Notes: a model not told the origin generated them from the letters alone. Shown: positions 4,450-50,038, counted from the first letter of the stretch. The stretch: DNA of 64,000 nt from Byssovorax sp. (GCA_046351295.1 JAXLYT010000035.1:13452-77451); one strand, 5' to 3'. A program made the numbers and translations.

Positions 4450-5793
4450 ATGGCCTTGCCCCCCGGCCCCTGGACTCCCGGCATCATCGCCCTGCTCTCC
4501 TGGATGCGCTCGCCCATCGAGAGCTTCGCCGAGGGCTTCGCGCGCTGGGGCGATGTCTACACCATCAAGAACCCCCTCTTCGGCCGCGAGGTGGTCATCT
4601 CCCACCCCGCCCTGGTCAAGCAGATCTTCACGGGCGATCCCGACGTGTACCACGCCGGCGAGGCCAACCTGGGTGTGGCCCCGGTGGTCGGCCCCCGCTC
4701 GGTGCTCCTGCTCGACGGCGCCGCTCACCACCGCGAGCGCAAGCTGCTCATGCCGCCCTTCCACGGCGAGCGGCTCGGCGTCTATGCCGAGGCCATCCGG
4801 TCCATCACCGAGCGGGTGATCGACGCGCTCCCGGCCGGTCAGGAGATCTCGATTCTCCCGGCCATGCAAGAGCTCACCTTCGATGTGATCCTGGAGACGG
4901 TGTTCGGCGCCCGGGAGCGCGACAGCGCCTCCATCGCCGCGCTGCGCGAGCGTCTGACCGCCCTCGTCGATCACGCGCAATCTCCCCTCGGGATGCTGTG
5001 GATGCTGCCCATGTTCCAGAGGGATCTCGGCCCGCTCACCGGCTGGGCCAGGCTCAAGCGTCATATCGCCGAGGCCGACGCGTCCATCTTCGAGATCATC
5101 GCGCAGGCGCGCGCCGCGGGCAGCGCCGCCGAGCCCCGGAGCGACGTGCTCTCCCTGCTCCTGTCCGCCCGCGACGAGGCCGGCGAGCCGATGAGCGACG
5201 GCGAGCTGCGCGACGAGCTCATCACGCTGCTCCTCGCCGGCCACGAGACGACCGCCGTGGCGCTCGCGTGGGCCATCGACGAGCTCGGCCATCGACCGGA
5301 GATCGTCGCGCAGATCGAGGCCGAGCTCCGCGCCGCCCCCGAGGGCGCGCCCGCTCCGCAGCCGTACCTCGACGCGGTGATCAAAGAGGTCCTCCGGCTG
5401 CACCCGATCGCGCCCATGCTCGTCCGCCGAACGGCCGCGCCCGTGACGCTGCGCGACTACGAGATCCCTCCGCAAACGTACCTCGTCATCTGCATCCACA
5501 ACGTCCACCACCACCCGGAGTTCTGGCCCTCCCCGGCCGAATTCCAGGCCGATCGCTTCCTCGGCAAGAAGGTCGATCCCTACGCGTATCTCCCCTTCGG
5601 CGGAGGCTCGCGCCGCTGCATCGGAATGGCCTTTGCCCTCCTCGAGATGCGTATCGTGCTCTCGACGTGGCTCAAGAAAGTGCGCTTTTCGACCCCTCGC
5701 CCGCCCGCCAAGACGACGCTGCGCAGCTTCCTGTTCGCGCCGGACGGCGGGACACGGGTGGTGATCGAGCCGCTGAGCTCCGCCGCGCCGTAG
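4450..5793 (+). CDS. cytochrome P450
   Basis: The heme loop FGGGSRRCIGMAFA and the I-helix motif AGHETT are present. Confidence 0.9.
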   Translation: MALPPGPWTPGIIALLSWMRSPIESFAEGFARWGDVYTIKNPLFGREVVISHPALVKQIFTGDPDVYHAGEANLGVAPVVGPRSVLLLDGAAHHRERKLLMPPFHGERLGVYAEAIRSITERVIDALPAGQEISILPAMQELTFDVILETVFGARERDSASIAALRERLTALVDHAQSPLGMLWMLPMFQRDLGPLTGWARLKRHIAEADASIFEIIAQARAAGSAAEPRSDVLSLLLSARDEAGEPMSDGELRDELITLLLAGHETTAVALAWAIDELGHRPEIVAQIEAELRAAPEGAPAPQPYLDAVIKEVLRLHPIAPMLVRRTAAPVTLRDYEIPPQTYLVICIHNVHHHPEFWPSPAEFQADRFLGKKVDPYAYLPFGGGSRRCIGMAFALLEMRIVLSTWLKKVRFSTPRPPAKTTLRSFLFAPDGGTRVVIEPLSSAAP

Positions 5794-8820: not shown

Positions 8821-10104
8821 GTGCTCCGCGTGAGCCACTTCCGCACCACCATCTTTCCCCTCTTCCTGATGCTCGTCACCCCCGTGGTGATCATCATCGT
8901 CTGGATGACCGCCACGCAGTACGACGGCTCCCTCCTTCGCTTCTTCAGCACCATCGACTGGCCGACCCTCGCCCGCACCTGGCCCGCGCCGAGCCTCACG
9001 GCCGCCAAGATCATCGGCGCGTTCGCGGCCTTCGAGGCCGTGCTGATGGTCGCCCTGCCCGGCAAGACACACCTCGGCCCGGTCACGCCGACGGGCAACC
9101 GCCCGCGCTACAAGCTCAACGGCATCCCCGCTTACGTGGTGACGCACGCCGCCTTCTTCGTCGCCGCCTACCCGCTGCATCTCTTCTCCCCGTCGATCGT
9201 CTACGACAACTTCGGCTCGATCCTCACCACCATCAACCTCTTCGCCCTCGCCTTCTGCGCCTTCCTCTACGTCAAGGGCGTCTATTTCCCCTCGTCGAGC
9301 GACGCCGGCCGGAGCGGCAATTTCATCTGGGATTTTTACTGGGGCGTGGAGCTCCACCCCCACCTCGGGTCGTTCAACATCAAGCAGTTCACCAACTGCC
9401 GGGTGGGGATGATGGGCTGGAGCGTGCTCCTCTTCGCCTTCATGGCGAAGCAGTACGAGGCGACGGGCCATGTGTCGACATCGATGCTCGTCTCCGTGTT
9501 CATCCAGGTCGTCTACATCATCAAGTTCTTCTGGTGGGAGAGCGGCTATTTCGGCTCCCTCGACATCATGCACGACCGGCTCGGCTACTACATCTGCTGG
9601 GGCGTCCTCTGCTGGATCCCGGGCACCTACGCGCTCGTCGGCCTGTATCTCGTGAACCACCCGATCGAGCTCCACCCGGCGTATTCGGCCCTCTGCGTGA
9701 TCCTCGGCCTCGGCTCGATCTGGGCGAACTACGACGCCGACGCCCAGCGCCAGCGGGTGCGCGAGACCGAGGGGCAGACCATGGTCTGGGGGAACCCGCC
9801 GGTGCTCATCAAGGCGAGATACACGACGACCGACGGCAAGGAGCGGGAGAACCTCTTGCTCGCCTCGGGCTGGTGGGGATTGGCCCGCCACTTCCACTAC
9901 GTGCCGGAGATCCTCCTCTCGCTCGCGTGGACGTTGCCCGCCATGTTCACCCACGCCCTGCCCTACTTCTACGTGGTCTACTTGACCATCCTCCTCACCG
10001 ACCGCTCCGGCCGCGACGAGAAGCGCTGCGCCGAGAAATACGGCGACGACTGGGAGAAATACCGGAAGGCGGTCCCCTACCGCATCATCCCCGGGATCTT
10101 TTGA
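8821..10104 (+). CDS. sterol reductase family protein (ERG4/ERG24; 7-dehydrocholesterol / C14 / C24(28) reductase-like)
   Basis: It is a polytopic membrane protein. The C-terminal signature is LLxSGWWGxxRHxxYxxE...YxxYxxxVPxRxIP, as in ERG4/ERG24/DHCR7. Confidence 0.8.
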
Positions 10105-10118
10105 CGAGGAGAACACCA

Positions 10119-11147
10119 ATGCGACTCGGTTTGATGATGGGTTATTCCGGCGCCGGGATCTCGGTGGACATCGATCTGATCAAGGAGGCCGAGGCGCTCG
10201 GCTACAGCTCGGTGTGGACGGCGGAGGCCTGGGGGTCGGACGCGGTGACGCCGCTCGCGTGGGTCGGCGCGCAGACGCAGAAGATCAAGCTCGGCACGGC
10301 GATCATGCAGCTCCCCGGGCGCTCTCCGGCCAACGCCGCGATGACGGCGATGACGCTCGACGCGCTCTCCGGCGGTCGCTTCATCATGGGCCTCGGCACC
10401 TCGGGCCCGCAGGTCGTCGAGGGCTGGCACGGCGTCTCGTTCGACAAGCCGCTCACGTGGCTGCGCGAGTACATCACCATCGTGAAGCAGATCTTCGCCC
10501 GGGAAAAGCCGCTGGAATTCCAGGGCGCGCGCTACCAGATCCCCTACCGAGGGCCGGGGGCGAGCGGGCTCGGCAAGCCGCTCAAGAGCATCCTCCACGG
10601 GCGCAAGGACCTCCCCATCTACACCGGATCCATGGCGCCGAAGAGCCAGGCGCTGAGCGCGGAGATCGCGGATGGGTTGCTGCTGACGTGCATGCACCCC
10701 GAGCGCTTCGAGGTGATCGGCGAGAACCTCGAAGAGGGCTTCGCCAGGGCCGGCGGCGGCAAGAGCCTCGCCACGTTCGATGTCGCCCCCACGGTGAACG
10801 TGATCGTGGGCGATGATCTCGACGTGTGCCGCGCGCCGATCAAGATGAGCCTCGCGCTCTACATCGGCGGCATGGGCGCGCGGAACAAGAACTTCTACAA
10901 CGACTACGTCCGCAAGATCGGCTTCGAGGAAGACGCGATCGCCATCCAGGATCTGTACCTCGCCGGCAAGCGGGGCGAGGCGATCGCCCGTGTGCCCGAC
11001 GCGCTGGTCGACGCGCTGCACCTCGTGGGGCCGAAGGAGCGGATCCGCGATCGGTTCGAGGCGTGGAAGGCCTCGAAGGTGGGGACGATGATCGTCGCGA
11101 CGGTGCAGCCCGAGGCGGTGCGGCTGATGGCGGAGCTCGCCGGCTGA
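10119..11147 (+). CDS. LLM-class (luciferase-like) F420-dependent oxidoreductase
   Basis: It has a TIM-barrel LLM fold. The motifs [20 protein letters not shown] are typical of F420-dependent LLM enzymes. It sits beside F420 biosynthesis genes. Confidence 0.75.
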
Positions 11148-11154
11148 CGCTCGC

Positions 11155-11796
11155 TCAGGGCAAGCCGGTGATGCGCAGGCCGGCCGTGCCCTTGTACTTG
11201 CGGTTCAGGTAGAGCAGCACCGGCGTGAGGCTCTCGAGCGCCACGGCGTTCGGCAGCGGGCCCGCGTCGAGGCCCTTGAGGCCGAGATCGGCGATCAAGG
11301 CGAGCACGGTGGCCTTCGCGGCCTCGTCGTCGCCGGCGATCAGCACGTCGCACTCGATCGCGTGATCGGGCTCGCCGAGGTGCGCCGAGCTCACGTGGTG
11401 CAGGGCCGCCACCACCTTCACCGTCGGGCCGAGCAAGGCCTGGGCTTCCATCGCGGCCGAGCGGCCCTCGGGGAGGTTCACGAGCGTCACCTTCGGGGGC
11501 TTGAGCGGCACGGTGATGTCGATGAGCACGCGGCCGGCGAGGTCTTCGGCGAGGCCCTTCAGCGTCTCGGCGTGCGCGGCGTAGGGCACGGAGAGGAGCA
11601 CGACCTCGGACTCGCGGACGCACCAGCCGTTGTCGCCGCCCTGGATGCCGGAAGCCTCTGCGGCGAGCTCCGCGGCGCGCGCCTTGGCCCGCTCTGCGTC
11701 GCGCGATCCGATGCGCACCTCGTGCCCTGCCCTGGCCCAGCGCATGGCGAGCCCTTTGCCTTCGCGTCCCGTTCCGCCGACGATCCCGATGCGCAT
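11155..11796 (-). CDS. fno: NADPH-dependent F420 reductase (F420H2:NADP+ oxidoreductase, Fno/NpdG)
   Basis: The N-terminus [27 protein letters not shown] carries a Rossmann GxGxxG motif. The protein is about 213 aa, the expected size. Confidence 0.8.
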
Positions 11797-11940: not shown

Positions 11941-12732
11941 ATGAACGTCCACTGCGGAGATCACCTCGAAATCCGGGCCCTCTCCGGCCTGCCTCTGATC
12001 GAGCCCGGCGACGATCTGGGCGCGATCGTGCTCGCCGCGCTCGCGCGGGACGGGCTCTCGCTGGTGGACGGCGACGTGATCGTGGTGGCCTCCAAGCTCG
12101 TCTCCCGGGCCGAGGGGCGCTTCGTCGATCTCCGCACGGTCGAGGTCTCGCCGGAAGCCGCGGCGCTCGCCGAGGAGACCGAGAAGGACCCTCGTCTGGT
12201 GGAGCTCGTCCTCCGGGAAACGAAGGCGATCTCGCGCAAGAGCAAGGGGGCGCTGGTGGTGCGTCACAAGCTCGGCTTCGTCTCGGCGGACGCGGGGATC
12301 GATCGGAGCAACGCGCGTCCGGTGGGCGCGCCCGAGGGCAGCGGGCCGTGGGCGCTGCTCCTGCCGGTCGCGCCGGATGCCTCGGCGCGGGCGATCCGCG
12401 AGGCGCTGGAGAAGGCCTCGGGCAAGACGGTGGGCGTGCTCGTCAGCGACTCGTTCGGCCGGCCTTTCCGGCTCGGCACGGTGGGCGCGGCGATCGGCGT
12501 GGCGGGCCTCCCGCCGGTGTGGGACCGGCGCGGCGAGCTCGACCTGTATGGCCGCCCGCTCGAGCACACGTTCACGGCGCTCGCCGATCAGGTGGCCGCG
12601 GCGGCCGATCTCGTGGCCGGGCAAGCGGCGGAGCGGCGGGGCGCGATCCTCGTCCGCGGCCTCTCCTTCGAGGCGGGCGAGCACTCCGCGGAGGAGCTTT
12701 ACCGGCCTCTTCCCATGGATCTCTACAGGTGA
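11941..12732 (+). CDS. cofE: coenzyme F420-0:L-glutamate ligase (CofE; archaeal-type, no nitroreductase domain)
   Basis: The motifs [17 protein letters not shown] and [12 protein letters not shown] match the CofE/FbiB N-terminal ligase domain. An alternative start at 11857 is possible. Confidence 0.75.
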
Positions 12733-12739
12733 TCGGGCG

Positions 12740-13663
12740 ATGAAGGCGAGGGTCCTCGGCCTCTCGGGCGGCGTCGGCGGCGCGCGCTTCCTCCATGGCC
12801 TCTACAAGGCGCTGCCCGCGGGCGCGCTCACCATCGCCGTCAACACCGGGGACGACTTCGAGCACTGGGGCCTGTGGATCTCGCCCGATCTCGACACGGT
12901 GATGTACACGCTCTCCGATCTCGGCCACGAGGAGCGGGGCTGGGGGCTCGCCGAGGAGAGCTTCGCGACCCTCTCGATGATCCGCCGCTACGGTGGGGAC
13001 GACTGGTTCGCGCTGGGCGATCGCGATCTCGCGACACACCTCCTGCGCACGGAGGCGCTCCGGCGCGGCGAGCCGCTCCACGCGGTGACCGATCGCCTTT
13101 GCCGGGCGCTGGGGATCACCGCGCAGGTCTTGCCGATGGCCGATGGCCCTTGTCGGACGATGATCGACACCGAGGAAGAGGGCACCCTGCCCTTCCAGGT
13201 GTGGTTCGTGCGGCACCGCGCCGCACCCAAGGTCACGCGCGTGTGGTCGGACGGCGCGCCGCCACCTGCGCCCGGGCTCGTCGCGGCGATCGAGGCGGCG
13301 GAGCTCGTGCTGATCGGGCCGTCGAACCCGTACGTGTCGATCGATCCGATCCTCGATCGGCCCGGGGTGCGCGCGGCGCTCCGCGGCAAGACGGTGGTGG
13401 CGGTGAGCCCGCTCGTGCACGGGCAGGCGGTGAAGGGGCCGCTCGCGGCGATGATCCCGGCGCTCGGCGGGCGCGAGGCCTCGAGCGCGGCCATCGCGGC
13501 GCACTACGGCGATCTGCTCTCCGGCATGGTGGTCGAGACGGGCGACGACGAGGGGCTCGGCGCGCTGCCGTCGCTCGCGACCTCGACGGTGATGAAGACG
13601 CGGGCCGACAGCCTGCGCCTCGCCCGCGAGGTGCTCGCCTTCGCGGAGGCGCTCCGGCGATGA
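12740..13663 (+). CDS. cofD: 2-phospho-L-lactate transferase (CofD/FbiA)
   Basis: The N-terminus [21 protein letters not shown] matches the CofD/YvcK family. The motifs [24 protein letters not shown] and [14 protein letters not shown] are also present. Confidence 0.85.
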
Positions 13664-14328
13664 GCGCCGCGCCCTCCCGCGACGCCGGGCCGCCCTGGGC
13701 GCTGATCCCGGTCAAGGCCTTCTCGCAGGCCAAATCCAGGCTCGCGCCGGCGCTCGGCCCGCGGGAGCGCGCCCTCTTCGCGCGGAGCCTCTTCGAGCAT
13801 GTGCTCGGGGCGCTCGCGCCCTGCGCGGAGCTCGGCGGGGTGCTGGTGGTGACGGCTTGTCCCGAGGTCGCGGCGGTCGCGCGGGCGCACGGCGCCGAGG
13901 TGGCAACCGACGCGGTGCCGGAGGGGCTCGGCCTCATCGTCGACGGCGGGCTCGCGGCGCTCGCGGCGCGCGGGGCCGGGAGCGCGCTCGTGCTGATGAG
14001 TGACCTGCCGAGGCTGGAGACGGCGGAGATCCGGCGCCTGCTCGATCTTTTGAGGTCCAACGATCTGGTGCTGTCGCCGGACGAGCGGGACGAGGGGACG
14101 AACGCGCTCGGGCTCTCGCCGGTCGATCGGATCGAGACGCTCTTCGGGCGGGCCGACAGCTTCGCGCGGCACTGCCAGCGGGCCAAGGATCTCGGCCTCA
14201 CGCCGGCCATCCTCCGCAGCCCGGGGCTCGGCTTCGACATCGACGGGCCGGACGATCTGGCGAGGCTCGGAGCGCCCGGCCGATCAGCGGCGCTCGGCGC
14301 CGAGCCCGGCTCTCGCCCGGCGGCCTGA
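13660..14328 (+). CDS. cofC: 2-phospho-L-lactate (or PEP) guanylyltransferase (CofC/FbiD)
   Basis: It overlaps cofD by 4 bp (ATGA). It has an MobA-like nucleotidyltransferase fold ([14 protein letters not shown]). The protein is about 222 aa. Confidence 0.75.
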
Positions 14329-14379: not shown

Positions 14380-14577
14380 ATTCCGCTGCGTCATCGAGCG
14401 CGAAAAAGCGCTGAAAATTCCCTGCAAATCACGTCGTGACCGGGGCTGGCACAAGCGCTGCACAGGCGCTCGACACCGGTTCTTCGGCGCGTGAGCCGAG
14501 GCCGTGAGGAAGCCAAACTGCTCACCTTCGGAAAGGAAGCTCGAGCGAACGCGGCTGACCACGCCGGATCATCTTGT

Positions 14578-14637
14578 CCACGGAGACGTGGAGGTGCCCA
14601 AAGTCCTCCAACCGCCCAAGCCTCCACGTCTCCGTGG
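14578..14637. promoter_or_regulatory. perfect 17-bp inverted repeat (ccacggagacgtggagg-N26-cctccacgtctccgtgg) about 55 bp upstream of the had start
   Basis: Exact reverse-complement arms were read directly in the sequence. It lies in the leader of the benzoyl-CoA operon. Confidence 0.4.
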
Positions 14638-14692
14638 CTCGTTCTTCGCGCGGCCTGCCCGGGGCCCGAGCTCCATTCGCCCTCGGGGTGCC

Positions 14693-15805
14693 ATGTCAAT
14701 CGATGGATATGTATGGGCCCTGGAAGCGCCCGGCCATCCGCTCGTGCGCAAGCCTCGCACGTTCACCGATCCTCCCGCCGGGCTCGCGCTGCTCGAGGTG
14801 ATGGGTACAGGTGTCTGTCACACCGATCTCGGCTTCGCCGACGGTGATGTCGCGCCCAAGGCGCCGCTGCCCCTCGTGCTCGGACACGAGATCGTCGGCC
14901 GCGTGCTCCAGGTGGGCGGCGGCGCAGGCGATGATCTCGTGGGGCGCCGCGTGCTCGCGCCCGCCGTGTCGCCGTGCGGTGTCTGCGCAGCGTGCCGGCG
15001 AGGTCGCCCCACGTCGTGCCCCAAGGGGCGAATGCCGGGCAACGACGCCGACGGCGGCTTCGCCACGCATGTGCTCGTGCCCGCCGTCGACCTCGTGGCG
15101 CTCGATCCTCCGGGCGCGGCCGGCGCGGCCAGCTTGCAAGGCCCGCTCGGTGAGGCCGGGCTCGAACCGTGGGAGATCGCGCCGATCGCCGACGCCGCCA
15201 CCACGGCCTACCAGGCCATCGTCCGGGCGAAGCTCGCCGAGGGCGAGGTGGCGATCTTCATCGGCGCGGGCGGCGTGGGCGGCTTCGGCGTGCAGCTCGC
15301 GAAGACGGTGGGCGCCTTCGTCGTCGCGATCGACGTGAGCCGGGCGCGCCTCGCCGCGCTCGAAGGATCGGCCGACGAGGTCGTCGACTCGACGGGCCTC
15401 GACGCGCGCGGCGTGCGCGAGGCAGTGCGATCGAAGATCAAGGCGCGCGGCAAGGGCGGCGTCCCCGTGCGGGTCTTCGAGACCAGCGGCACGACGCCCG
15501 GCCAGGCCGCGGCCTTCGAGCTGCTCGACCGGGGCGGGAGCCTCTCGATCGTCGGCTTCACCCGCGACAAGACGCCGGTGCGTCTCTCCAACGTGATGGC
15601 GCTCGACGCGGAGATCTACGGTAACTGGGGCTGCGATCCCGCCCTCTACGGCGAGGTCGTCAAGAGGGTGCTCGCCGGGCAGGTCAAGGTCCGCCCCTTC
15701 GTCGAGCGCCGGCCCCTCGACAGTGTGAACGAGGTCCTGAACGAGCTGCGCGCGCACCGCCTGAGCCGCCGCGCGGTGCTCGTCCCCGAGATTCTAGGAG
15801 GGTAG
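14693..15805 (+). CDS. had: Zn-dependent medium-chain dehydrogenase, probable 6-hydroxycyclohex-1-ene-1-carbonyl-CoA dehydrogenase (Had/BamQ-like)
   Basis: The zinc site GHEIVGRV with CHTDL and the structural-zinc Cys cluster CGVCAACRRG place it in the MDR family. The 370-aa size and the context upstream of oah/dch/bcr match Had. Confidence 0.65.
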   Translation: MSIDGYVWALEAPGHPLVRKPRTFTDPPAGLALLEVMGTGVCHTDLGFADGDVAPKAPLPLVLGHEIVGRVLQVGGGAGDDLVGRRVLAPAVSPCGVCAACRRGRPTSCPKGRMPGNDADGGFATHVLVPAVDLVALDPPGAAGAASLQGPLGEAGLEPWEIAPIADAATTAYQAIVRAKLAEGEVAIFIGAGGVGGFGVQLAKTVGAFVVAIDVSRARLAALEGSADEVVDSTGLDARGVREAVRSKIKARGKGGVPVRVFETSGTTPGQAAAFELLDRGGSLSIVGFTRDKTPVRLSNVMALDAEIYGNWGCDPALYGEVVKRVLAGQVKVRPFVERRPLDSVNEVLNELRAHRLSRRAVLVPEILGG

Positions 15806-15810
15806 CGCCG

Positions 15811-16923
15811 ATGGGTTCTCACGAGCTTGTGCCTGGGTATGAATTCAAGGCGATCCGTTACGAGCGAAGGCCGCTGAAGAGCGCCGCCGGCGCCCCGGTC
15901 GAGGGGCTCTATTCGGCGTGGATCATGCTCGATAACCCGTCGGAGATGAACGCCTACACCACCGAGGCGGTGCGCGAGGTGATCCTCGCCTTCCGCCGCG
16001 CGAGCGAGGACCCCGCGGTGGTGGCGGCCGTCTTCACGGGCGCTGGCAACAGGGCCTTCTGCGCCGGCGGCAACACCCGCGAGTACGCGACGTACTACGC
16101 CGGCCACCCGGCTCGCTACCGCGCGTACATGCGGCTCTTCAACGACATGGTGAGCGCCATCCTCGCATGCGACAAACCCACGATCTGCCGCGTCAACGGC
16201 CTGCGGGTCGGCGGCGGGCAGGAGATCGGGATGGCGTGCGATTTCTCGATCGCCCAGGACATGGCGCGCTTCGGCCAGGCGGGGCCCAAGCACGGCTCGG
16301 CGCCCGACGGCGGCGCGACGGATTTCCTCCCGCTGTTCGTGGGCGTCGAGCGGGCGCTCGAGAGCTGCGCGCTCTGCGAGCCGTGGAGCGCGCACAAGGC
16401 GCACCGCCTCGGCCTCATCACCGAGATCGTCCCGGCGCTGCGCGTCGACGGCGAGCTGAGGCCGAACCCGCTCGTCGAGACGAGCCGCTTCGTCGATCCG
16501 GCGACGGGCAAGATCGTCCACGGCGAGCCCCTGACGGGCGAGGCGCTCGCCGAGGGCAAGAAGCTCCTCGCGCGCGGCGAGATCGATCTCGGGCCGCTCG
16601 ACGCCGCGGTCGAGAGCCTCGTGACCCGCCTCGCCGCCACCATGCCCGACTGCCTGACGCGCACCCTGGAGAGCGTGCGCAAGCACAAGCTCGAGCACTG
16701 GGATCGCAACAAGGAGGGCAGCCGCGCGTGGCTCTCGCTCAACATGATGACCGAGGCCAAGGCCGGCTTCCGCGCCTTCCACTTCGCGCCCGGGGGAAAG
16801 CGCGAGCTCGATTTCTACGCGCTCCGCAGGGCCCTCGCCTCCGGCAAGACCTGGGACGAGTCGCTCTTCAAGGAGCTCGGTGTCGATGACGCCTCGTGCG
16901 TCGAGCGAGGGGGCAAGGCATGA
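15811..16923 (+). CDS. oah: 6-oxocyclohex-1-ene-1-carbonyl-CoA hydrolase (ring-opening; Oah/BamA), crotonase superfamily
   Basis: It has a crotonase fold (FCAGGN, GGGQEIGMACDF) with the long C-terminal extension typical of Oah/BamA. The protein is about 370 aa. Confidence 0.75.
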   Translation: MGSHELVPGYEFKAIRYERRPLKSAAGAPVEGLYSAWIMLDNPSEMNAYTTEAVREVILAFRRASEDPAVVAAVFTGAGNRAFCAGGNTREYATYYAGHPARYRAYMRLFNDMVSAILACDKPTICRVNGLRVGGGQEIGMACDFSIAQDMARFGQAGPKHGSAPDGGATDFLPLFVGVERALESCALCEPWSAHKAHRLGLITEIVPALRVDGELRPNPLVETSRFVDPATGKIVHGEPLTGEALAEGKKLLARGEIDLGPLDAAVESLVTRLAATMPDCLTRTLESVRKHKLEHWDRNKEGSRAWLSLNMMTEAKAGFRAFHFAPGGKRELDFYALRRALASGKTWDESLFKELGVDDASCVERGGKA

Positions 16924-17696
16924 GCCGCGAGACCACGGTCGCCGTCACTCGCCTCGCCGGAGGGATGATCGCGCGGGTCTGCCTCACCGGCGACAAGGGC
17001 AACATCCTGAGCCGCGCGGCGGTCGCCTCGCTGAGCAAGGCCTTCCAGGAGATCGGCGCGGACATGCGCGTCAAGGCGGTGCTGCTCGCCGCCGACGGGC
17101 CGAGCTTCTGCTACGGCGCGAGCGTTCCCGAGCATGCGCCGGGCGAGGTGGAGCGGATGCTCCCGGAGTTCTGCGCGCTCTTCCGCACGATCGCCGCCTC
17201 CTCGCTCCCGGTGGCCGCGGCGGTGCGGGGCCGGTGCCTCGGCGGAGGGCTCGAATTGGCGCTCGCCGCCACGCGCCTCGTCGTCGCGGAGGACTCCGTG
17301 CTCGGCCTGCCCGAGGTCACGCTCGGCGTCTTCCCGCCGGTCGCGCCGGTGCTCCTCCACTTCCGCACGCGCCAGCCGGTCATCGATCGCATGGTGGTCC
17401 TCGGCGAGACCATCTCCGGCGTCGAGGCCGTGGCCCTCGGCGTGGCCGACTCCTGCGCGCCGGCGTCGGAGGTCGAGCCGAAGGCCCTGGCGTGGGCCGA
17501 GCGCTACCGCGATCTGTCCGGCGTCGCCGTCCGCTACGCCACCCGGGCCTCGCGGATCGGCTGGAACGAGGCGCTCGCGGGCAGGCTCGATCGCCTGGAG
17601 AAGATGTACCTCAACGACCTGATGGCGACGGCCGACGCGAAGGAGGGCATCACGGCCTTCCTGGAGCGCCGCTCCCCCCGGTGGACCGACCAATGA
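16920..17696 (+). CDS. dch: enoyl-CoA hydratase family, probable cyclohexa-1,5-diene-1-carbonyl-CoA hydratase (Dch/BamR)
   Basis: It has a crotonase fold (GGGLELALAATRLVVAED). It is about 258 aa. It overlaps oah by 4 bp and sits directly upstream of bcrC. Confidence 0.7.
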   Translation: MSRETTVAVTRLAGGMIARVCLTGDKGNILSRAAVASLSKAFQEIGADMRVKAVLLAADGPSFCYGASVPEHAPGEVERMLPEFCALFRTIAASSLPVAAAVRGRCLGGGLELALAATRLVVAEDSVLGLPEVTLGVFPPVAPVLLHFRTRQPVIDRMVVLGETISGVEAVALGVADSCAPASEVEPKALAWAERYRDLSGVAVRYATRASRIGWNEALAGRLDRLEKMYLNDLMATADAKEGITAFLERRSPRWTDQ

Positions 17697-18859
17697 GATC
17701 GACGACGGAGATCGCCGCGCTCTGCGAGCAGATCGCGCTCGACACGCAGCTCGGCGCGGTGCGCGCCTACCAGGAAAAGACGGGGCAGAAGGCGATCGGG
17801 CATTTGCCGATCTATGCCCCGCGCGAGGTCATCCAGGCCGCGGGGATGCTCCCGGTCGGCATCCTCGGCGGCGGCGATCAGATCGAGATCATCCGCGGCG
17901 ACGCCTACTTCCAGTCGTACATCTGCCAGATCCCCCGGAGCGTCGTGGAGATGGGCCTCACCGCCCGCCTCGACTGCCTCTCCGGGATGCTCTTCCCCGC
18001 GATCTGCGACGTGATCCGGAACCTCTCCGGCGTCTGGCAGCTCCTCTTCCCGGAGAAGTACGTCCGCTACATCGACGTGCCGCAGAACGAGGTGTGGGAG
18101 ATAGGCGGGCGCTTCTACATGCACGATCTGCGCGAGCTCGGCCGCGAGCTCGGCCAGGTGTCCGGCACGGCGCCCACGGACGAGAGCCTGCGGGCGGCGA
18201 TCCGCGCGCACAACGAAGTGCGCCGGCTGATCCGCGAGCTCTACGATCTGCGGGCGAAGCGGCCCGAGCTCGTGCCGACGGCCGAGGCCTATGTGCTCGT
18301 GCGGGCCGGCTATCAGCTCCCGGCCGAGGAGCATGCGGCCCTGCTCCGCGAGTACATGGACGCGGCGCGGGAGAGCAAGCGCCCGGCGCTCGATCAGGCG
18401 CGCGTCATCGTGATCGGCACCTTCTGCGAGCAGCCCCCGCTCGGCCTGCTCAAGACGCTGGAGCGCGCCGGCTGCTACATCGTCGACGACGATCTCATCC
18501 TCGGCGCGCGCTTCCTCACGAGCGACGTGGACGAGACGATCGACCCGTGGGAGGCGCTCGCCCGGGCGTATTTGCAGAGCCAGGCGCACACCTCGTCCCG
18601 CTACCGCCCCGAGGAGCAGAAGGGCCGCTACCTGGTCGACCGCTGCAAGCAGCGCGGCGCCGAGGGTGTGATCTTCTGCGCCCCGAGCTTCTGCGATCCG
18701 GCGCTGCTCGAGCAGCCGATGCTGGAGGCCGCGCTCGATCGGGCGGGCATCCAGCACACCGCGTTCAAGTACGCCGAGAACACCGCGCAGTTCCAGGCCA
18801 TTCACGAGCAGGCCGGCACCTTCTCCGATTCCATCCGCCTCTGGAGCCTCGAAGCATGA
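17693..18859 (+). CDS. bcrC: benzoyl-CoA reductase subunit C (gamma), HgdB/BcrC family
   Basis: It belongs to the 2-hydroxyglutaryl-CoA dehydratase D-component family. At 388 aa it matches the size of the BCR gamma subunit. It overlaps dch by 4 bp. Confidence 0.8.
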   Translation: MRSTTEIAALCEQIALDTQLGAVRAYQEKTGQKAIGHLPIYAPREVIQAAGMLPVGILGGGDQIEIIRGDAYFQSYICQIPRSVVEMGLTARLDCLSGMLFPAICDVIRNLSGVWQLLFPEKYVRYIDVPQNEVWEIGGRFYMHDLRELGRELGQVSGTAPTDESLRAAIRAHNEVRRLIRELYDLRAKRPELVPTAEAYVLVRAGYQLPAEEHAALLREYMDAARESKRPALDQARVIVIGTFCEQPPLGLLKTLERAGCYIVDDDLILGARFLTSDVDETIDPWEALARAYLQSQAHTSSRYRPEEQKGRYLVDRCKQRGAEGVIFCAPSFCDPALLEQPMLEAALDRAGIQHTAFKYAENTAQFQAIHEQAGTFSDSIRLWSLEA

Positions 18860-20184
18860 AAGACGACGCCGCGCAGGATGTCCCCAAGGAGCCCTCGATG
18901 CTCCGCCAGAAGGAGCTCGTCTCCGGGCACTTCGACGCGCTCGCCACGGCCCGCGACGACGGCCGCAAGGTCGCCTACACCTTCGTGCCGGGCAACCTCA
19001 CCGAGCTGCTCCTCGCCTTCGACGTGCTCCCGGTGCTGCCGGAGATCAACGCGCTCCAGTCGGGGATGCGCAAGCGCTCGGGGGCGTACATCACCGAGGC
19101 CGAGAAGCTCGGCCACTCGGAGGATGTCTGCTCGTATGTGAAGTGCGACATCGGGATGCTCAAGACGGGCCTCGGCCCGACGGGCAAGCCCATGCCTCCG
19201 CCCGACCTGCTCCTGCTCTCGTACACGGGCTGCTTCACGTTCATGAAGTGGTTCGAGCTGCTCAAGCAGGAGTTCCCCAAGGCCGAGATCGCGATGCTCC
19301 ACGTGCCGTACCAGGGCGGCGGCGTGATCACGAAGGAGATGCGCGACTACGTGGTCGCCCAGCTCCGGAGCGAGGTCGTCCCCAAGCTCGAGAAGATCAC
19401 CGGCAAGAAGCTCGACGAGGACCGGCTGAGGGGCCTGCTCGAACGCTCCGCGCGCGCCGAGGAGGACCTCGTGTGGGTGCTCGAGTCGGGCAAGCGAAAC
19501 CCCTCGCCGATCGACGGCTACTTCGGCGGCGTCTTCTACATCGGGCCGATCTTCACCGCCTTCCGCGGCACGGAAGAGGGCTGCGACTACTACAAGATGC
19601 TGCGCGAGGAGGTGCAGGGCCGGATCGATCGCAAGGAAGGGCCGATCACGCCCGCGGGGCCGCTCGATCAGCAGCGCTACCGCCTCGTGGTCGAGGGCCC
19701 GCCCAACTGGACGAGCTTCCGCGAGCTGTGGGAGATGTTCGCCTCCGAGGGCGCGGTCTGCGTCGCCAGCACGTACACCAAGGTCGGCGGGCTCTACGAT
19801 CAAGGCTTCCGGCACGATCCGGATCACCCCTTCGAGACGCTCTCCGACTACTGCCTCGGCTGCTACACGAACCTGAACCTCCCGTCGCGCACCGGCCTCA
19901 TCGCGAAATACGTCAAGGAGTACCAGGCCGACGGCTTTCTCGTTCACTCGGTCAAGAGCTGCAACTCCTTCAGCGCCGGGCAGCTCCTGATCCTCCGCGA
20001 GATCGAGAAGCGCACCGGCGTGCCCGGGGGCTTCATCGAGAGCGATCTCGTCGATCCTCGGTATTTCTCGCCCGCCAACGTGAAGAACCGGCTCGAGTCG
20101 TACCTCCAGATGATCGAGCAGAAGCGCCACGGAGGCGAGCGCAAGGAAGGCGCGTCGCTCACCGGAACGGAGTCCTCGCCGTGA
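18856..20184 (+). CDS. bcrB: benzoyl-CoA reductase subunit B (beta), HgdB/BcrB family
   Basis: It is a paralogue of BcrC with conserved Cys residues. It is 442 aa. It overlaps bcrC by 4 bp. Confidence 0.8.
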   Translation: MKDDAAQDVPKEPSMLRQKELVSGHFDALATARDDGRKVAYTFVPGNLTELLLAFDVLPVLPEINALQSGMRKRSGAYITEAEKLGHSEDVCSYVKCDIGMLKTGLGPTGKPMPPPDLLLLSYTGCFTFMKWFELLKQEFPKAEIAMLHVPYQGGGVITKEMRDYVVAQLRSEVVPKLEKITGKKLDEDRLRGLLERSARAEEDLVWVLESGKRNPSPIDGYFGGVFYIGPIFTAFRGTEEGCDYYKMLREEVQGRIDRKEGPITPAGPLDQQRYRLVVEGPPNWTSFRELWEMFASEGAVCVASTYTKVGGLYDQGFRHDPDHPFETLSDYCLGCYTNLNLPSRTGLIAKYVKEYQADGFLVHSVKSCNSFSAGQLLILREIEKRTGVPGGFIESDLVDPRYFSPANVKNRLESYLQMIEQKRHGGERKEGASLTGTESSP

Positions 20185-21539
20185 GCCGATCGACCTTCCT
20201 ATGCTACGTCGGCATCGATCTCGGCTCGACGACGACCAAGTCGGTCGTGGTCGACGATCAAGGCGAGATCATCGGTCGCGGGATCACCAACAGCCGGAGC
20301 AACTACGATCTGGCGTGCGAGATCGCCCGGAGCGAGGCCTTCGTCGACGCCCAGATGAACCGGCTGCGCAAGGCCCTCGCGCAGAACCCGGTGCTCGAGT
20401 CGCATGCGAAGGTGCTGAGCGCCTCGCTGGAGCGCTCGTTCCGCTACCGGCAGCATGCGCGGCAGCTCGAGAGCCTGCGCCGGGCGTGCATGGAGATCAC
20501 GCGCGGCGCCCAGCCGCTCGAAGGGGCGCTCGTCGAGATCCTCGACGAGCTCGATGCCCTCGCCGAGAAGATGTTCAGCGGCATCGCCGGGGCCGAGAAG
20601 CGATCGGAGTTCTTCCGCGACATCGCCGGCGCGCAGTTCCAGAAGGCCGCCGAGACCCGGGCCGATCCGAAGCGCCTGCCCTTCGAGGACATCGTGGCCG
20701 TGTTCGACAAGGCCATCCTCAAGGTCGAGAACGAGCGCGACGATCTGACCTTCGAGGGCAACGCGCGGGCGGCGTTTTCCCGCTCGCTCGGGCGCTACGG
20801 CAAGGCCACGCCGGAGGTGCAGGCCGCGGCGGCCTCGGTGCTCGACGATCTGCTCGAGCGACCTCCGGTGATCGGCGCGAGCGTGGGCACCGGCTATGGC
20901 AGGGCGCGCCTCCCCTTCCCCAAGGAGCGGATCCGCTCGGAGATCCTCTGCCACGGCCTCGGCGCCCACGCGATGTTCCCGAACACGCGCACGGTGCTCG
21001 ACATCGGCGGGCAGGACACCAAGGCCATCCAGGTCGACCAGGAGGGCATCGTCACCGGCTTCCAGATGAACGATCGCTGCGCGGCCGGCTGCGGGCGCTA
21101 CCTCGGCTACATCGCCGACGAGATGAACCTCGGCGTGCACGAGCTCGGACCGCTCGCCGAGCAGGCCACGCGCAAGGTGAAGATCTCCTCCACGTGCACG
21201 GTCTTCGCGGGCGCCGAGCTGCGCGACCGGCTCGCCCTCGGCGAGAAGCGCGAGGACATCCTCGCGGGCCTGCACCGGGCCATCATCCTCCGGGCCATGT
21301 CGATCCTCGCCCGCTCGGGTGGGGTGCACGACGAGTTCACCTTCACGGGCGGCGTCGCGAACAACCCCGCGGCCGTGCGCGCCCTGAAGGATCTCATCGC
21401 CGAGAACTACGGCGCGCGGATCCTCAACATCTCGCCGAGCTCGATCTACACGGGCGCCCTCGGCGCGGCGCTCTTCGCGCTGCGCGACGCGCGGCGGGTC
21501 GAGGAAGAGGCCGCCCGCCCCAAGGAGATCCACGCATGA
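20181..21539 (+). CDS. bcrA: benzoyl-CoA reductase subunit A (alpha), ATPase (BadF/BadG/BcrA/BcrD family) with large insertion
   Basis: It has a GTG start. The N-terminus GIDLGSTTTKSVVVD carries an actin-like ATPase motif, and a second motif GGQDTKAIQVD is present. A roughly 170-aa insertion relative to BcrD gives the 452-aa alpha subunit. Confidence 0.8.
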   Translation: MSRSTFLCYVGIDLGSTTTKSVVVDDQGEIIGRGITNSRSNYDLACEIARSEAFVDAQMNRLRKALAQNPVLESHAKVLSASLERSFRYRQHARQLESLRRACMEITRGAQPLEGALVEILDELDALAEKMFSGIAGAEKRSEFFRDIAGAQFQKAAETRADPKRLPFEDIVAVFDKAILKVENERDDLTFEGNARAAFSRSLGRYGKATPEVQAAAASVLDDLLERPPVIGASVGTGYGRARLPFPKERIRSEILCHGLGAHAMFPNTRTVLDIGGQDTKAIQVDQEGIVTGFQMNDRCAAGCGRYLGYIADEMNLGVHELGPLAEQATRKVKISSTCTVFAGAELRDRLALGEKREDILAGLHRAIILRAMSILARSGGVHDEFTFTGGVANNPAAVRALKDLIAENYGARILNISPSSIYTGALGAALFALRDARRVEEEAARPKEIHA

Positions 21540-22405
21540 GCCGGCTCGATCGCGCCCTCCTCACCGCCGGCGTCGACGTCGGGACGAGCGGCATCAAGGT
21601 CACCCTCTTCCGGGTCGAGCCCGGCGGCGCCGCGACGCTGCTCTCCAAGGTCACCGAGCGGCTCCGCCGCCGCGATCCCAAGGCCGTGGTCGAGCACTGC
21701 TACGCCTCGGCGCTCGAAGAGGCCGGCGTCGATCGCGACAAGATCGACTACGTGGCGTCGACGGGCGAAGGCCACCTCGTCGACTTCCACAGCGGCCACT
21801 TCTACGGGATGACGACGCACGCGCGCGGCGCCGCCTACCTGAGCCCGGGAGCCAAGGGCGCGCTCGACATGGGCGCGCTCCACGCCCGCGCCATCCGCAT
21901 GGATGAGCGGGCCAAGGTGCTCGGCTACGCGATGACGAGCCAGTGCGCCTCGGGCAGCGGGCAGTTCATCGAGAACATCGCCCGCTACCTCGGCGTGACG
22001 CTGGGCGAGGTGGGCGAGCTGTCGCTCTCCGCCGGCTCGCCCGAGAAGGTGAGCGGCATCTGCGCGGTGCTCGCCGAGACCGACGTGATCAACATGGTGT
22101 CGCGCGGCGTGCGCACCGCCGACATCCTGAAGGGCATCCACCTGTCGATGGCCGATCGGCTCGCCAAGCTCCTGCGCTCGGCGCGGATCGACGGCTCGGT
22201 GATGCTGACCGGCGGGCTCGCCGCCGACGTGGGGCTGCGCGGCGCCATCGCCCAGCAGCTCGCCGGGGACAAGCGCCTCCAGGTGAAGCTCTTGACGCAC
22301 CCGGACGCCATCTTCGCCGGCGCCATCGGGGCCGCGCTGTGGGGCGCCGTGCGCTACCAGAAGCTCGCCGAGCGGCGGGCCCAGACCGAGGAGCTTTCCG
22401 CATGA
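21536..22405 (+). CDS. bcrD: benzoyl-CoA reductase subunit D (delta), ATPase (BcrD/HgdC-like)
   Basis: GVDVGTSGIKVTLF and the [4Fe-4S]-bridging Cys context are present. It is 289 aa. It overlaps bcrA by 4 bp. Confidence 0.8.
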   Translation: MSRLDRALLTAGVDVGTSGIKVTLFRVEPGGAATLLSKVTERLRRRDPKAVVEHCYASALEEAGVDRDKIDYVASTGEGHLVDFHSGHFYGMTTHARGAAYLSPGAKGALDMGALHARAIRMDERAKVLGYAMTSQCASGSGQFIENIARYLGVTLGEVGELSLSAGSPEKVSGICAVLAETDVINMVSRGVRTADILKGIHLSMADRLAKLLRSARIDGSVMLTGGLAADVGLRGAIAQQLAGDKRLQVKLLTHPDAIFAGAIGAALWGAVRYQKLAERRAQTEELSA

Positions 22406-22881
22406 GCCGGATGGATCGAGAGCCGGGGACGCTGGACACCGACGCCGTGGTCGTTCGCACGCTCGAGGAGCGCGACATCGACGCCATCGTCCGCATCGAC
22501 GCGAGCGCGACGGGCAAGCCGAGGCGCGAGTATTACCGGGACAAAGTGGCGGCCAGCCTGGGCAACAGCCGCCTCCGCACCTCGCTCGTCGCCGAGGTCG
22601 ACGGCATGGTCGTCGGCTTCCTGATGGCCACCACCCATTACGGCGAGTTCGGCCAGGCCGATCCCGTGGCCGTGCTCGACTCGCTGGGCGTTCACCGGGA
22701 TTTCCAGCATCAGCACGTGGGCTCGGCGATGATGCGGCAGTTCCTGATGAACGCCCGGGCTGTCGGGGTGAGCAAGCTGCGCACCGAGCTCGGCTGGAAC
22801 GAAGTGGAGCTCATCCGCTTTTTCGACCGGCACGGCTTCAAGCACGGTGGCAGGATCGTCCTGGAGCACGACCTCGGCTGA
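22402..22881 (+). CDS. GNAT family N-acetyltransferase
   Basis: The acetyl-CoA binding motif QHQHVGSAMMRQFL is present. It overlaps the bcrD stop by 4 bp, so it is translationally coupled. Confidence 0.75.
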   Translation: MSRMDREPGTLDTDAVVVRTLEERDIDAIVRIDASATGKPRREYYRDKVAASLGNSRLRTSLVAEVDGMVVGFLMATTHYGEFGQADPVAVLDSLGVHRDFQHQHVGSAMMRQFLMNARAVGVSKLRTELGWNEVELIRFFDRHGFKHGGRIVLEHDLG

Positions 22882-49800: not shown

Positions 49801-49873
49801 CTGCGGGGTAGTAGGAGTGGCCCCTACGCCGGGATAGCCTCCCGGAGACGCTCGTTCGACCCGAGCCTCCGCA
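49801..49873 (+). tRNA. tRNA-like cloverleaf (73 nt), probably a tRNA pseudogene/remnant: canonical stems and T-loop but atypical D- and anticodon loops
   Basis: The acceptor stem is tgcgggg/ctccgca (7 bp, one G-U). The D stem is gtag/ctac. The anticodon stem is ccggg/cccgg with loop atagcct (would-be anticodon AGC, position 37 = C). The variable loop is agac. The T stem is gctcg/cgagc with the canonical T-loop ttcgacc. U8 and G18G19 are present, but A14 and A21 are replaced. No CCA is encoded. Confidence 0.4.
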
Positions 49874-50038
49874 ACCGTGCGCGCTGCGCCCCTTCGCGCG
49901 GCCCACCTCCCACGCTGTCCGCGTGTCCGCCTGTCCGCGCGCGAGCGGTGGTTCGCCCGCGCGCGCCGGCGTCAATCGTTCCTGGGCGCGCTGCGCCCGG
50001 CGGGTGGGCCGATATCGCCCGACCCGAGGGAGACTTCC

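Follow-up and report, generated by a model that had tools for sequence, protein, structure and literature searches.

The locus described here raises the question of how a full set of genes for oxygen-sensitive reduction and opening of the benzoyl-CoA ring comes to lie in what looks like an aerobic myxobacterial chromosome, and what it does there. The analysed DNA is one strand of a 64-kb stretch (hereafter the window) of a Byssovorax sp. metagenome-assembled genome (MAG), with coordinates counted from the start of the window. Eight genes at 14693–22881 very probably encode a Thauera-type class I benzoyl-CoA reductase (BCR) with the dienoyl-CoA ring-opening branch, followed by a GNAT N-acetyltransferase. 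On sequence evidence the operon is chromosomal and vertically inherited, not a recent import. The physiology that we consider probable, with less confidence than the enzymatic assignment, is anaerobic or micro-oxic benzoyl-CoA catabolism in a facultatively anaerobic Polyangiaceae host.

Translation of the interval gives eight intact open reading frames (ORFs), which fill it as follows (scores are for NCBIfam models unless stated; aa, amino acids).

14693–15805, + strand: had, 370 aa; TIGR03201, 347.8 bits (cut-off 338.65), end-to-end alignment; Pfam ADH_N and ADH_zinc_N.
15811–16923, + strand: oah, 370 aa; TIGR03200, 528.8 bits (cut-off 464.45); runner-up, the BadI model, 121 bits.
16920–17696, + strand: probable dch, 258 aa; best model TIGR03189, 191.8 bits (cut-off 292.5); next model 116 bits.
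17693–18859, + strand: bcrC, 388 aa; TIGR02263, 492.5 bits (cut-off 421.15); HadC 198, BzdN 101.
18856–20184, + strand: bcrB, substrate-binding subunit, 442 aa; TIGR02260, 680.9 bits (cut-off 486.55); HadB 146, BzdO 69.
20181–21539, + strand: bcrA, ATP-binding subunit, 452 aa, GTG start; TIGR02259, 554.4 bits (cut-off 578).
21536–22405, + strand: bcrD, ATP-binding subunit, 289 aa; TIGR02261, 361.4 bits (cut-off 312.85).
22402–22881, + strand: GNAT N-acetyltransferase, 159 aa; Pfam Acetyltransf_1 (PF00583) and Acetyltransf_7 (PF13508).

The ORFs are backed by a gene call of the whole window based on the GC content of third codon positions (GC3), with no competing ORFs, and their GC3 of 0.88–0.96 is similar to that of the remaining window. 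The start-codon context of had is conserved in two related loci, L081 and L085 of the survey described below. An initial annotation of this DNA had counted nine genes in the interval, which holds eight; the 4-bp ATGA/GTGA overlaps that it placed at 16920, 17693, 18856, 20181, 21536 and 22402 are all present, and its reductase subunit lengths of 388, 442, 452 and 289 aa are exact. The had/oah junction is a 5-bp gap, with no overlap. The eight genes would be translationally coupled and expressed as one operon. Upstream, cofE, cofD and cofC (+ strand, 11941–14328) are separated from had by a gap of 364 bp.

Families were assigned with the NCBIfam equivalog models and their curated cut-offs, together with Pfam. 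Had, Oah, BcrC, BcrB and BcrD exceed the equivalog cut-offs, and all alignments run end to end. Pfam recognizes HGD-D (PF06050) in two proteins and BcrAD_BadFG (PF01869) in two, encoded by four consecutive overlapping genes; in the had–oah–dch part it finds ADH_N with ADH_zinc_N once and ECH_1 in two proteins. These matches bear out the gene identifications made initially, namely a Thauera-type class I BCR with Had, Oah and a probable Dch. The third gene takes the name probable Dch from its operon context, and most related loci have a homologue at this place, between oah and bcrC. A grouping with the 2-hydroxyacyl-CoA dehydratases was tested and not found: the BCR models outscore the dehydratase models by 294–535 bits (492 versus 198 bits for HadC in the case of BcrC; 681 versus 146 bits for HadB in the case of BcrB). 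The public record already carries the PGAP labels ‘benzoyl-CoA reductase subunit C’ (MFO0759204) and ‘D’ (MFO0759207.1); the probable Dch (MFO0759203) is labelled only ‘enoyl-CoA hydratase/isomerase family protein’, and the GNAT protein has the accession MFO0759208.

The cofactor ligands are in keeping with these assignments, and Fe–S cysteine ligands are retained in all four reductase subunits. The nearest solved structures are those of the 3-methylbenzoyl-CoA reductase MbdONQP, followed by HadBC and BzdNO; residue roles and numbering for BzdO and BzdN were taken from PMC11971306. Cys92, Cys126 and Cys369 of BcrB align with the [4Fe-4S] ligands Cys95, Cys128 and Cys380 of BzdO. In BcrC, Cys78, Cys105 and Cys334 align with Cys73, Cys100 and Cys327 of BzdN, and the remaining three of the six BzdN [8Fe-9S] ligands are absent, so that BcrC fits a single cubane [4Fe-4S] cluster, as in the tetrameric BCR and methylbenzoyl-CoA reductase types (PMC11971306). 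The paired cysteines of the ATPase module are present in both ATP-binding subunits, as Cys300 and Cys339 of BcrA (motifs DRCAAG and STCTVF) and as Cys137 and Cys176 of BcrD. Relative to BcrD, BcrA contains a single insertion of approximately 160 residues after the N-terminal phosphate loop; this feature of the initial annotation was confirmed by pairwise alignment and by a split match to MbdQ, which does not have the insertion either.

In the proposed pathway, ATP hydrolysis at BcrA and BcrD would drive low-potential electrons through the [4Fe-4S] clusters to benzoyl-CoA bound at BcrB, and the product of BcrCBAD would be cyclohexa-1,5-diene-1-carbonyl-CoA. Dch would hydrate this dienoyl-CoA, Had would oxidize the 6-hydroxy product, and Oah would open the ring hydrolytically to give 3-hydroxypimelyl-CoA, destined for β-oxidation enzymes encoded elsewhere. 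An enhancer-binding activator, a benzoate-CoA ligase, a ferredoxin with its reductase and the lower pathway would likewise be encoded outside the window. The sequence data establish family membership, cofactor ligands, gene arrangement, conservation and purifying selection; activity, substrate, dependence on sigma-54, the part played by the GNAT protein and the lifestyle of the host are inferred.

The order of the Thauera aromatica cluster, which Breese et al. reportedly described in 1998, is had-oah-dch-bcrCBAD-fdx, and on this order the statement that the window holds the same gene set stands for the seven enzymes, which follow the same succession. The two systems also share the subunit sizes, the enlarged BcrA, the end-to-end equivalog matches and the ligand pattern of BcrC that fits a single [4Fe-4S] cluster. 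They differ in that the window has a GNAT gene after bcrD instead of a ferredoxin gene, a putative sigma-54 promoter and a diverged Dch that scores below the cut-off, and in their hosts, a Polyangiaceae MAG in one case and a denitrifying betaproteobacterium in the other. Rhodopseudomonas palustris uses the BadK/BadH/BadI branch, whereas the Oah of the window scores 529 bits on its own model and 121 bits on that of BadI. The badDEFGAB system of that organism resembles the window in its Bcr-type four-subunit reductase and in having a GNAT protein, BadL, tied to the reductase operon (PMC6191541), whereas the window has no Rrf2/BadM gene, badA ligase or badB ferredoxin. The bam cluster of Geobacter metallireducens likewise includes a benzoate-induced N-acetyltransferase gene, bamK (PMC1924859), but its reductase is the unrelated, ATP-independent class II enzyme of the tungsten AFOR family. 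BzdNOPQ of Aromatoleum and MbdONQP of Thauera chlorobenzoica (PDB entries 8s02, 9g87 and 9gai) belong to the same BCR/HAD radical enzyme family, and BcrB shares with BzdO the three cysteine ligands of the [4Fe-4S] cluster; similarity to the window subunits is nevertheless low (70–200 bits), three of the six BzdN [8Fe-9S] ligands are missing from BcrC, and the BcrA insertion is not found in MbdQ.

Several observations weigh against the reading of the locus as a catabolic Thauera-type operon. BcrA lies 24 bits below the TIGR02259 cut-off, though positions 3–432 of the 432 model positions are aligned, and Dch lies below that of TIGR03189, though this is still its top model, 75 bits ahead of the next. 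The substrate could be a substituted benzoyl-CoA. The 64-kb window contains no ligase, ferredoxin, KGOR, lower-pathway genes or sigma-54 activator, and no Rrf2/BadM-type regulator domain occurs among its genes. The initial annotation had already noted the absence of a benzoate-CoA ligase, ferredoxin and KGOR, with which the called genes agree (no AMP-binding or POR/KGOR domain); a search of all six frames of the 64 kb for the ferredoxin motif CxxCxxCxxxC found none. In addition, the BcrCBAD tree discussed below carries no support values and is built from environmental sequences, with no characterized reference among them.

Homologues of BcrB are abundant, with 6,922 at E ≤ 1e-20, many of them at least 70% identical. 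Related loci were surveyed in GTDB species representatives, of which at least 80 loci, all from MAGs, are listed; the distributions given in this text refer to the loci listed. The order had-oah-dch-bcrCBAD is found in most of the 80, and the operon occurs in Myxococcota, Acidobacteriota, Planctomycetota, Gemmatimonadota, Alphaproteobacteria and other groups. At the level of annotation, class I BCR genes have been reported in MAGs of Myxococcota, Acidobacteriota, Gemmatimonadota and others (PMC11704145; bioRxiv 10.1101/2025.11.25.690425), and Polyangiales MAGs have been reported with nirK/S, norBC and nosZ (PMC11821767). Our literature search found no paper devoted to benzoyl-CoA reductase in myxobacteria.

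The host, known as a MAG, is an uncultured member of the Polyangiaceae (Myxococcota): the TatD protein of the window is 100% identical to MFO0759227.1, recorded as ‘MAG: TatD family hydrolase [Byssovorax sp.]’ on a 114,297-bp contig that also encodes the BcrC, BcrD, Dch and GNAT accessions given above, and its next named relatives are from Polyangiaceae, Minicystis rosea (67%) and Labilithrix (63%). The possibility that the host is a known facultative anaerobe in which the cluster has been described was also tested and is not the case. We know of no cultured myxobacterium noted for anaerobic aromatic degradation. To our knowledge, the characterized hosts of class I BCRs (Thauera, Rhodopseudomonas, Magnetospirillum, Aromatoleum) are without exception facultative anaerobes capable of O2 respiration as well, so that finding the reductase alongside O2-dependent enzymes is the norm; because class I enzymes are found in such organisms, facultative anaerobiosis is the physiology that we favour. 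Of the three lifestyle options put forward initially, facultative anaerobiosis, or else micro-oxic catabolism of aromatics, is still the sensible choice, and biosynthetic use and recent acquisition, weighed below, are disfavoured. The framing of the locus as an anomaly is not supported either. The operon type is very common in environmental genomes, the genes were already machine-annotated publicly and the host type is compatible, which leaves the locus only mildly surprising.

The last gene of the operon is coupled translationally to bcrD, and its product shows the QxxGxA acetyl-CoA motif as QHVGSA. The gene takes the position of fdx in Thauera, as first annotated, and in the proteobacterial loci compared. 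Of the 64 informative loci, 47 have a GNAT homologue no more than 3 kb downstream of bcrD; in 20 it adjoins bcrD directly and in 21 one gene intervenes. A ferredoxin gene after bcrD is confined to the proteobacterial clade, where the motif is present in nine loci; the 81-aa ferredoxin gene itself was read in four alphaproteobacterial loci. The association reaches beyond this operon type: GNAT proteins 42% identical to that of the window are encoded in a bzd-like class I cluster (L088) and adjoin AFOR/BamB-like class II genes in L090 (two copies) and L091. By sequence, then, the protein is assigned to an acetyltransferase group that accompanies several types of benzoyl-CoA reductase genes. The names of its homologues are all uninformative as to a specific function, as is the best match in the PDB, a generic Ard1/NatA-type protein (E = 4.5e-7). 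In R. palustris, the aminobenzoate N-acetyltransferase BadL forms a product that lifts the repression by BadM, and BadL is required for badDEFGAB expression (PMC6191541), and the Geobacter N-acetyltransferase gene bamK is induced 21.8-fold on benzoate (PMC1924859). By analogy, an accessory or regulatory role of the BadL/BamK kind has slightly better than an even chance.

The gene intervening between bcrD and the GNAT gene is a short-chain dehydrogenase/reductase (SDR) in nine of the ten such loci read (L013, L014, L023, L026–L028, L031, L043 and L054). The SDR is FabG-like, approximately 250 aa long and located at approximately 13.4–14.2 kb in each. These loci belong to Acidobacteriota, Planctomycetota, Gemmatimonadota and Eisenbacteria, and the window has no SDR at this position. 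Such an enzyme could catalyse the next pathway step, as a 3-hydroxypimelyl-CoA dehydrogenase.

Transcription of the operon probably starts from a sigma-54 promoter upstream of had, for which there is one candidate.

14447–14461, + strand: candidate sigma-54 (−24/−12) promoter, TGGCACAAGCGCTGC, 247 nt upstream of the had start codon.

The element has one mismatch to TGGCAC-N5-TTGC, and its GG and GC dinucleotides do not vary among four orthologous upstream regions in which the other bases have diverged. Upstream of had, the pattern TGGCAY-N5-YTGC is confined to the window, L081–L083 and L085; the background is 12 matches in 3.0 Mb, which amounts to 0.0018 per 450 nt. Across the window the sigma-54 pattern is not enriched (35 matches versus 44.7 expected, allowing up to two mismatches), and the credibility of the site at 14447 thus comes from its position and conservation only. 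A scan of 13.8–25.2 kb for sigma-70 promoters and intrinsic terminators gave nothing above the shuffled expectation. The leader between promoter and had (14462–14692, approximately 230 nt) contains conserved blocks such as AAGTCCTCCAACCG, shared with the orthologous regions of L081 and L085, and a small stem–loop at 14624–14637, and it matches no Rfam family.

Several lines of evidence bear on how long the operon has been in this lineage. When codon usage and GC3 of 14.7–22.9 kb were compared with the flanks, a check proposed with the initial annotation, the cluster matched them: the distance in relative synonymous codon usage between cluster and flanks is 0.236, below that of every control block of the same size (0.25–0.43), and the GC3 is 0.933 versus 0.924 ± 0.033. 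Synteny of the flanking genes is retained in at least five related metagenomic contigs from different samples. The arrangement of cofEDC, the cluster, the GNAT gene and a CDP-alcohol phosphatidyltransferase gene is shared by L081–L083 and L085; the longer block, npdG/cofEDC-had-oah-dch-bcrCBAD-GNAT-CDP-alcohol phosphatidyltransferase, is present in three JGI metagenomes and, from cofE on, in GCA_964269635.1. L086 and L087 (from GCA_035910455.1 and from an ENA assembly), which are cut upstream of bcr, still show the succession from bcr through the GNAT gene to the CDP-alcohol phosphatidyltransferase gene. L084 (GCA_964437785.1; BcrB 87% identical) has the same eight genes in another neighbourhood, with a sigma-54 activator just upstream.

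Compared with L081, all eight genes have a ratio of non-synonymous to synonymous substitution rates (dN/dS) of 0.10–0.25, with the GNAT gene lowest at 0.095, and dS is similar in the cluster (0.34–0.58) and the flanks (0.46–0.71). A neighbour-joining tree of concatenated BcrCBAD (70 taxa, 1,479 columns) places the window in a clade with L081–L084 and two ‘delta proteobacterium’ MAGs, L001 and L002. L001 is frameshifted, apparently because it comes from a long-read assembly, and was left out of the flank annotation. The tree is largely clade-coherent, in that most other clades match phylum labels; Myxococcota appear in three clades. The conclusion that the operon is not a recent import draws on these four lines together, namely codon usage, synteny, the similar dS and the clade of related MAGs.

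The alternative that the genes form a new island in a strictly aerobic myxobacterium, perhaps not physiologically integrated, is accordingly contradicted and very unlikely. What speaks for it is that very distant phyla share the operon and that Myxococcota-labelled loci fall into at least three separate clades of the tree, but this pattern indicates transfers at deep levels. For a recent event one has to set aside a codon usage and GC3 indistinguishable from the flanks, the same flanking genes in related contigs, the agreement of cluster and flank dS, and purifying selection on all genes; nor was any integrase, transposase or repeat seen at the operon borders. A further alternative is that the enzyme acts on another substrate or by another chemistry, for example by reducing methyl- or halobenzoyl-CoA or by working as a 2-hydroxyacyl-CoA dehydratase. 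In its favour are the promiscuity of class I BCRs, the fact that solved relatives are limited to MbdONQP, HadBC and BzdNO, and the failure of BcrA to reach its equivalog cut-off. The Thauera-type equivalogs nevertheless score 492–681 bits against 101–198 bits for dehydratase or bzd-type models, similarity to MbdO and MbdN is low (183–200 bits), and the flanking had, oah and dch belong specifically to the dienoyl-CoA route, which makes such an enzyme improbable.

Biosynthetic use would mean that the reductase makes cyclohexadienoyl- or cyclohexenoyl-CoA to prime a polyketide or another natural product with a reduced ring. Myxobacteria are rich in polyketide synthase (PKS) pathways with benzoyl-CoA starters, and a window with neither ligase nor lower-pathway genes would suit it. 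However, Oah (529 bits) and the whole ring-cleavage route through Dch and Had would destroy a cyclic starter, no PKS, non-ribosomal peptide synthetase (NRPS) or tailoring genes were found among the called genes of the 64 kb, and the identical operon occurs in MAGs of Acidobacteriota, Planctomycetota and Gemmatimonadota. We regard this use as extremely unlikely; the ring-opening Oah and the absence of PKS/NRPS genes from the window point to catabolism instead. A wider reading, unlikely though not far-fetched, is that the locus represents a distinct and widespread class I operon variant outside the Proteobacteria, in which a strongly conserved GNAT gene, often with an SDR gene, replaces the linked ferredoxin gene as a functional component under sigma-54 control in aerobic-looking, sterol-making hosts. 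Its scope may take in Myxococcota, Acidobacteriota, Planctomycetota and Gemmatimonadota. The GNAT protein may then, for example, generate a BadL-like signal independently of BadM, or modify the reductase or the ligase, and this lineage might draw on the adjacent F420 system. If this were true, ring reduction without oxygen would be at work in a large, unrecognized guild drawn from ‘aerobic’ soil phyla.

On the favoured reading, catabolism by a facultative anaerobe, a selectively maintained and vertically inherited class I BCR operon is further evidence for facultative anaerobiosis in many uncultured Polyangia, and these may take part in breaking down lignin-derived aromatics under anoxic or micro-oxic conditions. 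The understanding of the enzyme and its pathway is unchanged by this operon. The locus does draw attention to the GNAT protein as a conserved companion of BCRs; R. palustris is the only organism in which the role of this partner has been studied. Its practical value is modest and lies in a cultivation hint, namely benzoate with nitrate or low O2.

The neighbourhood of the operon includes the following genes.

1440–2792 and 4450–5793: two cytochrome P450s.
8821–10104: ERG4/ERG24-family sterol reductase (E = 4.2e-84).
10131–11147: LLM F420-dependent oxidoreductase.
11155–11745, − strand: npdG.
36497–39072, − strand: radical-SAM gene pair, one with a CofH_C domain.

The O2-linked and other neighbours named in the initial annotation are real, namely the two P450s, the sterol reductase, a Ser/Thr kinase and an FG-GAP protein; astacin proteins occur alongside them elsewhere in the window. 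The sterol reductase and P450s suggest O2-dependent sterol-type chemistry on the same segment as the oxygen-sensitive reductase. Downstream of the operon lie genes for the CDP-alcohol phosphatidyltransferase, a GFA protein, a giant PKD-repeat protein and a major-vault-protein-like protein.

The LLM oxidoreductase, npdG, cofE/cofD/cofC and the CofH-like radical-SAM pair make up a cofactor F420 gene set within the window. A functional coupling between F420 and bcr was considered and rejected: the adjacency of the cof genes is confined to the closest relatives (BcrB approximately 90% identical) and is missing in L084, L001, L002 and 80 other loci listed.

A tRNA-Ala (AGC) proposed by ARAGORN at 49802–49876 is probably a false positive in GC-rich DNA, as Rfam gives no tRNA at E ≤ 1 and the G3:U70 pair is absent; Rfam detects no RNA family anywhere in the window. 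The major-vault-protein-like gene (30566–33436) encodes a 956-aa protein with eukaryote-type MVP_shoulder (1.3e-16), Vault_3 and Vault_4 domains and no NCBIfam match. The stretch at 55150–63733 begins with a VgrG-like spike (Phage_GPD, Gp5_trimer_C), continues with three DUF2169 paralogues and closes with a 541-aa protein that matches no family. Between 33400 and 36400 the GC content falls to approximately 0.64, compared with approximately 0.70 elsewhere; this patch, which holds an AAA/STAND-like NTPase gene (35046–36392, − strand; weak Pfam match) and a 389-aa ORF (33689–34858, − strand), may be a small acquired island.

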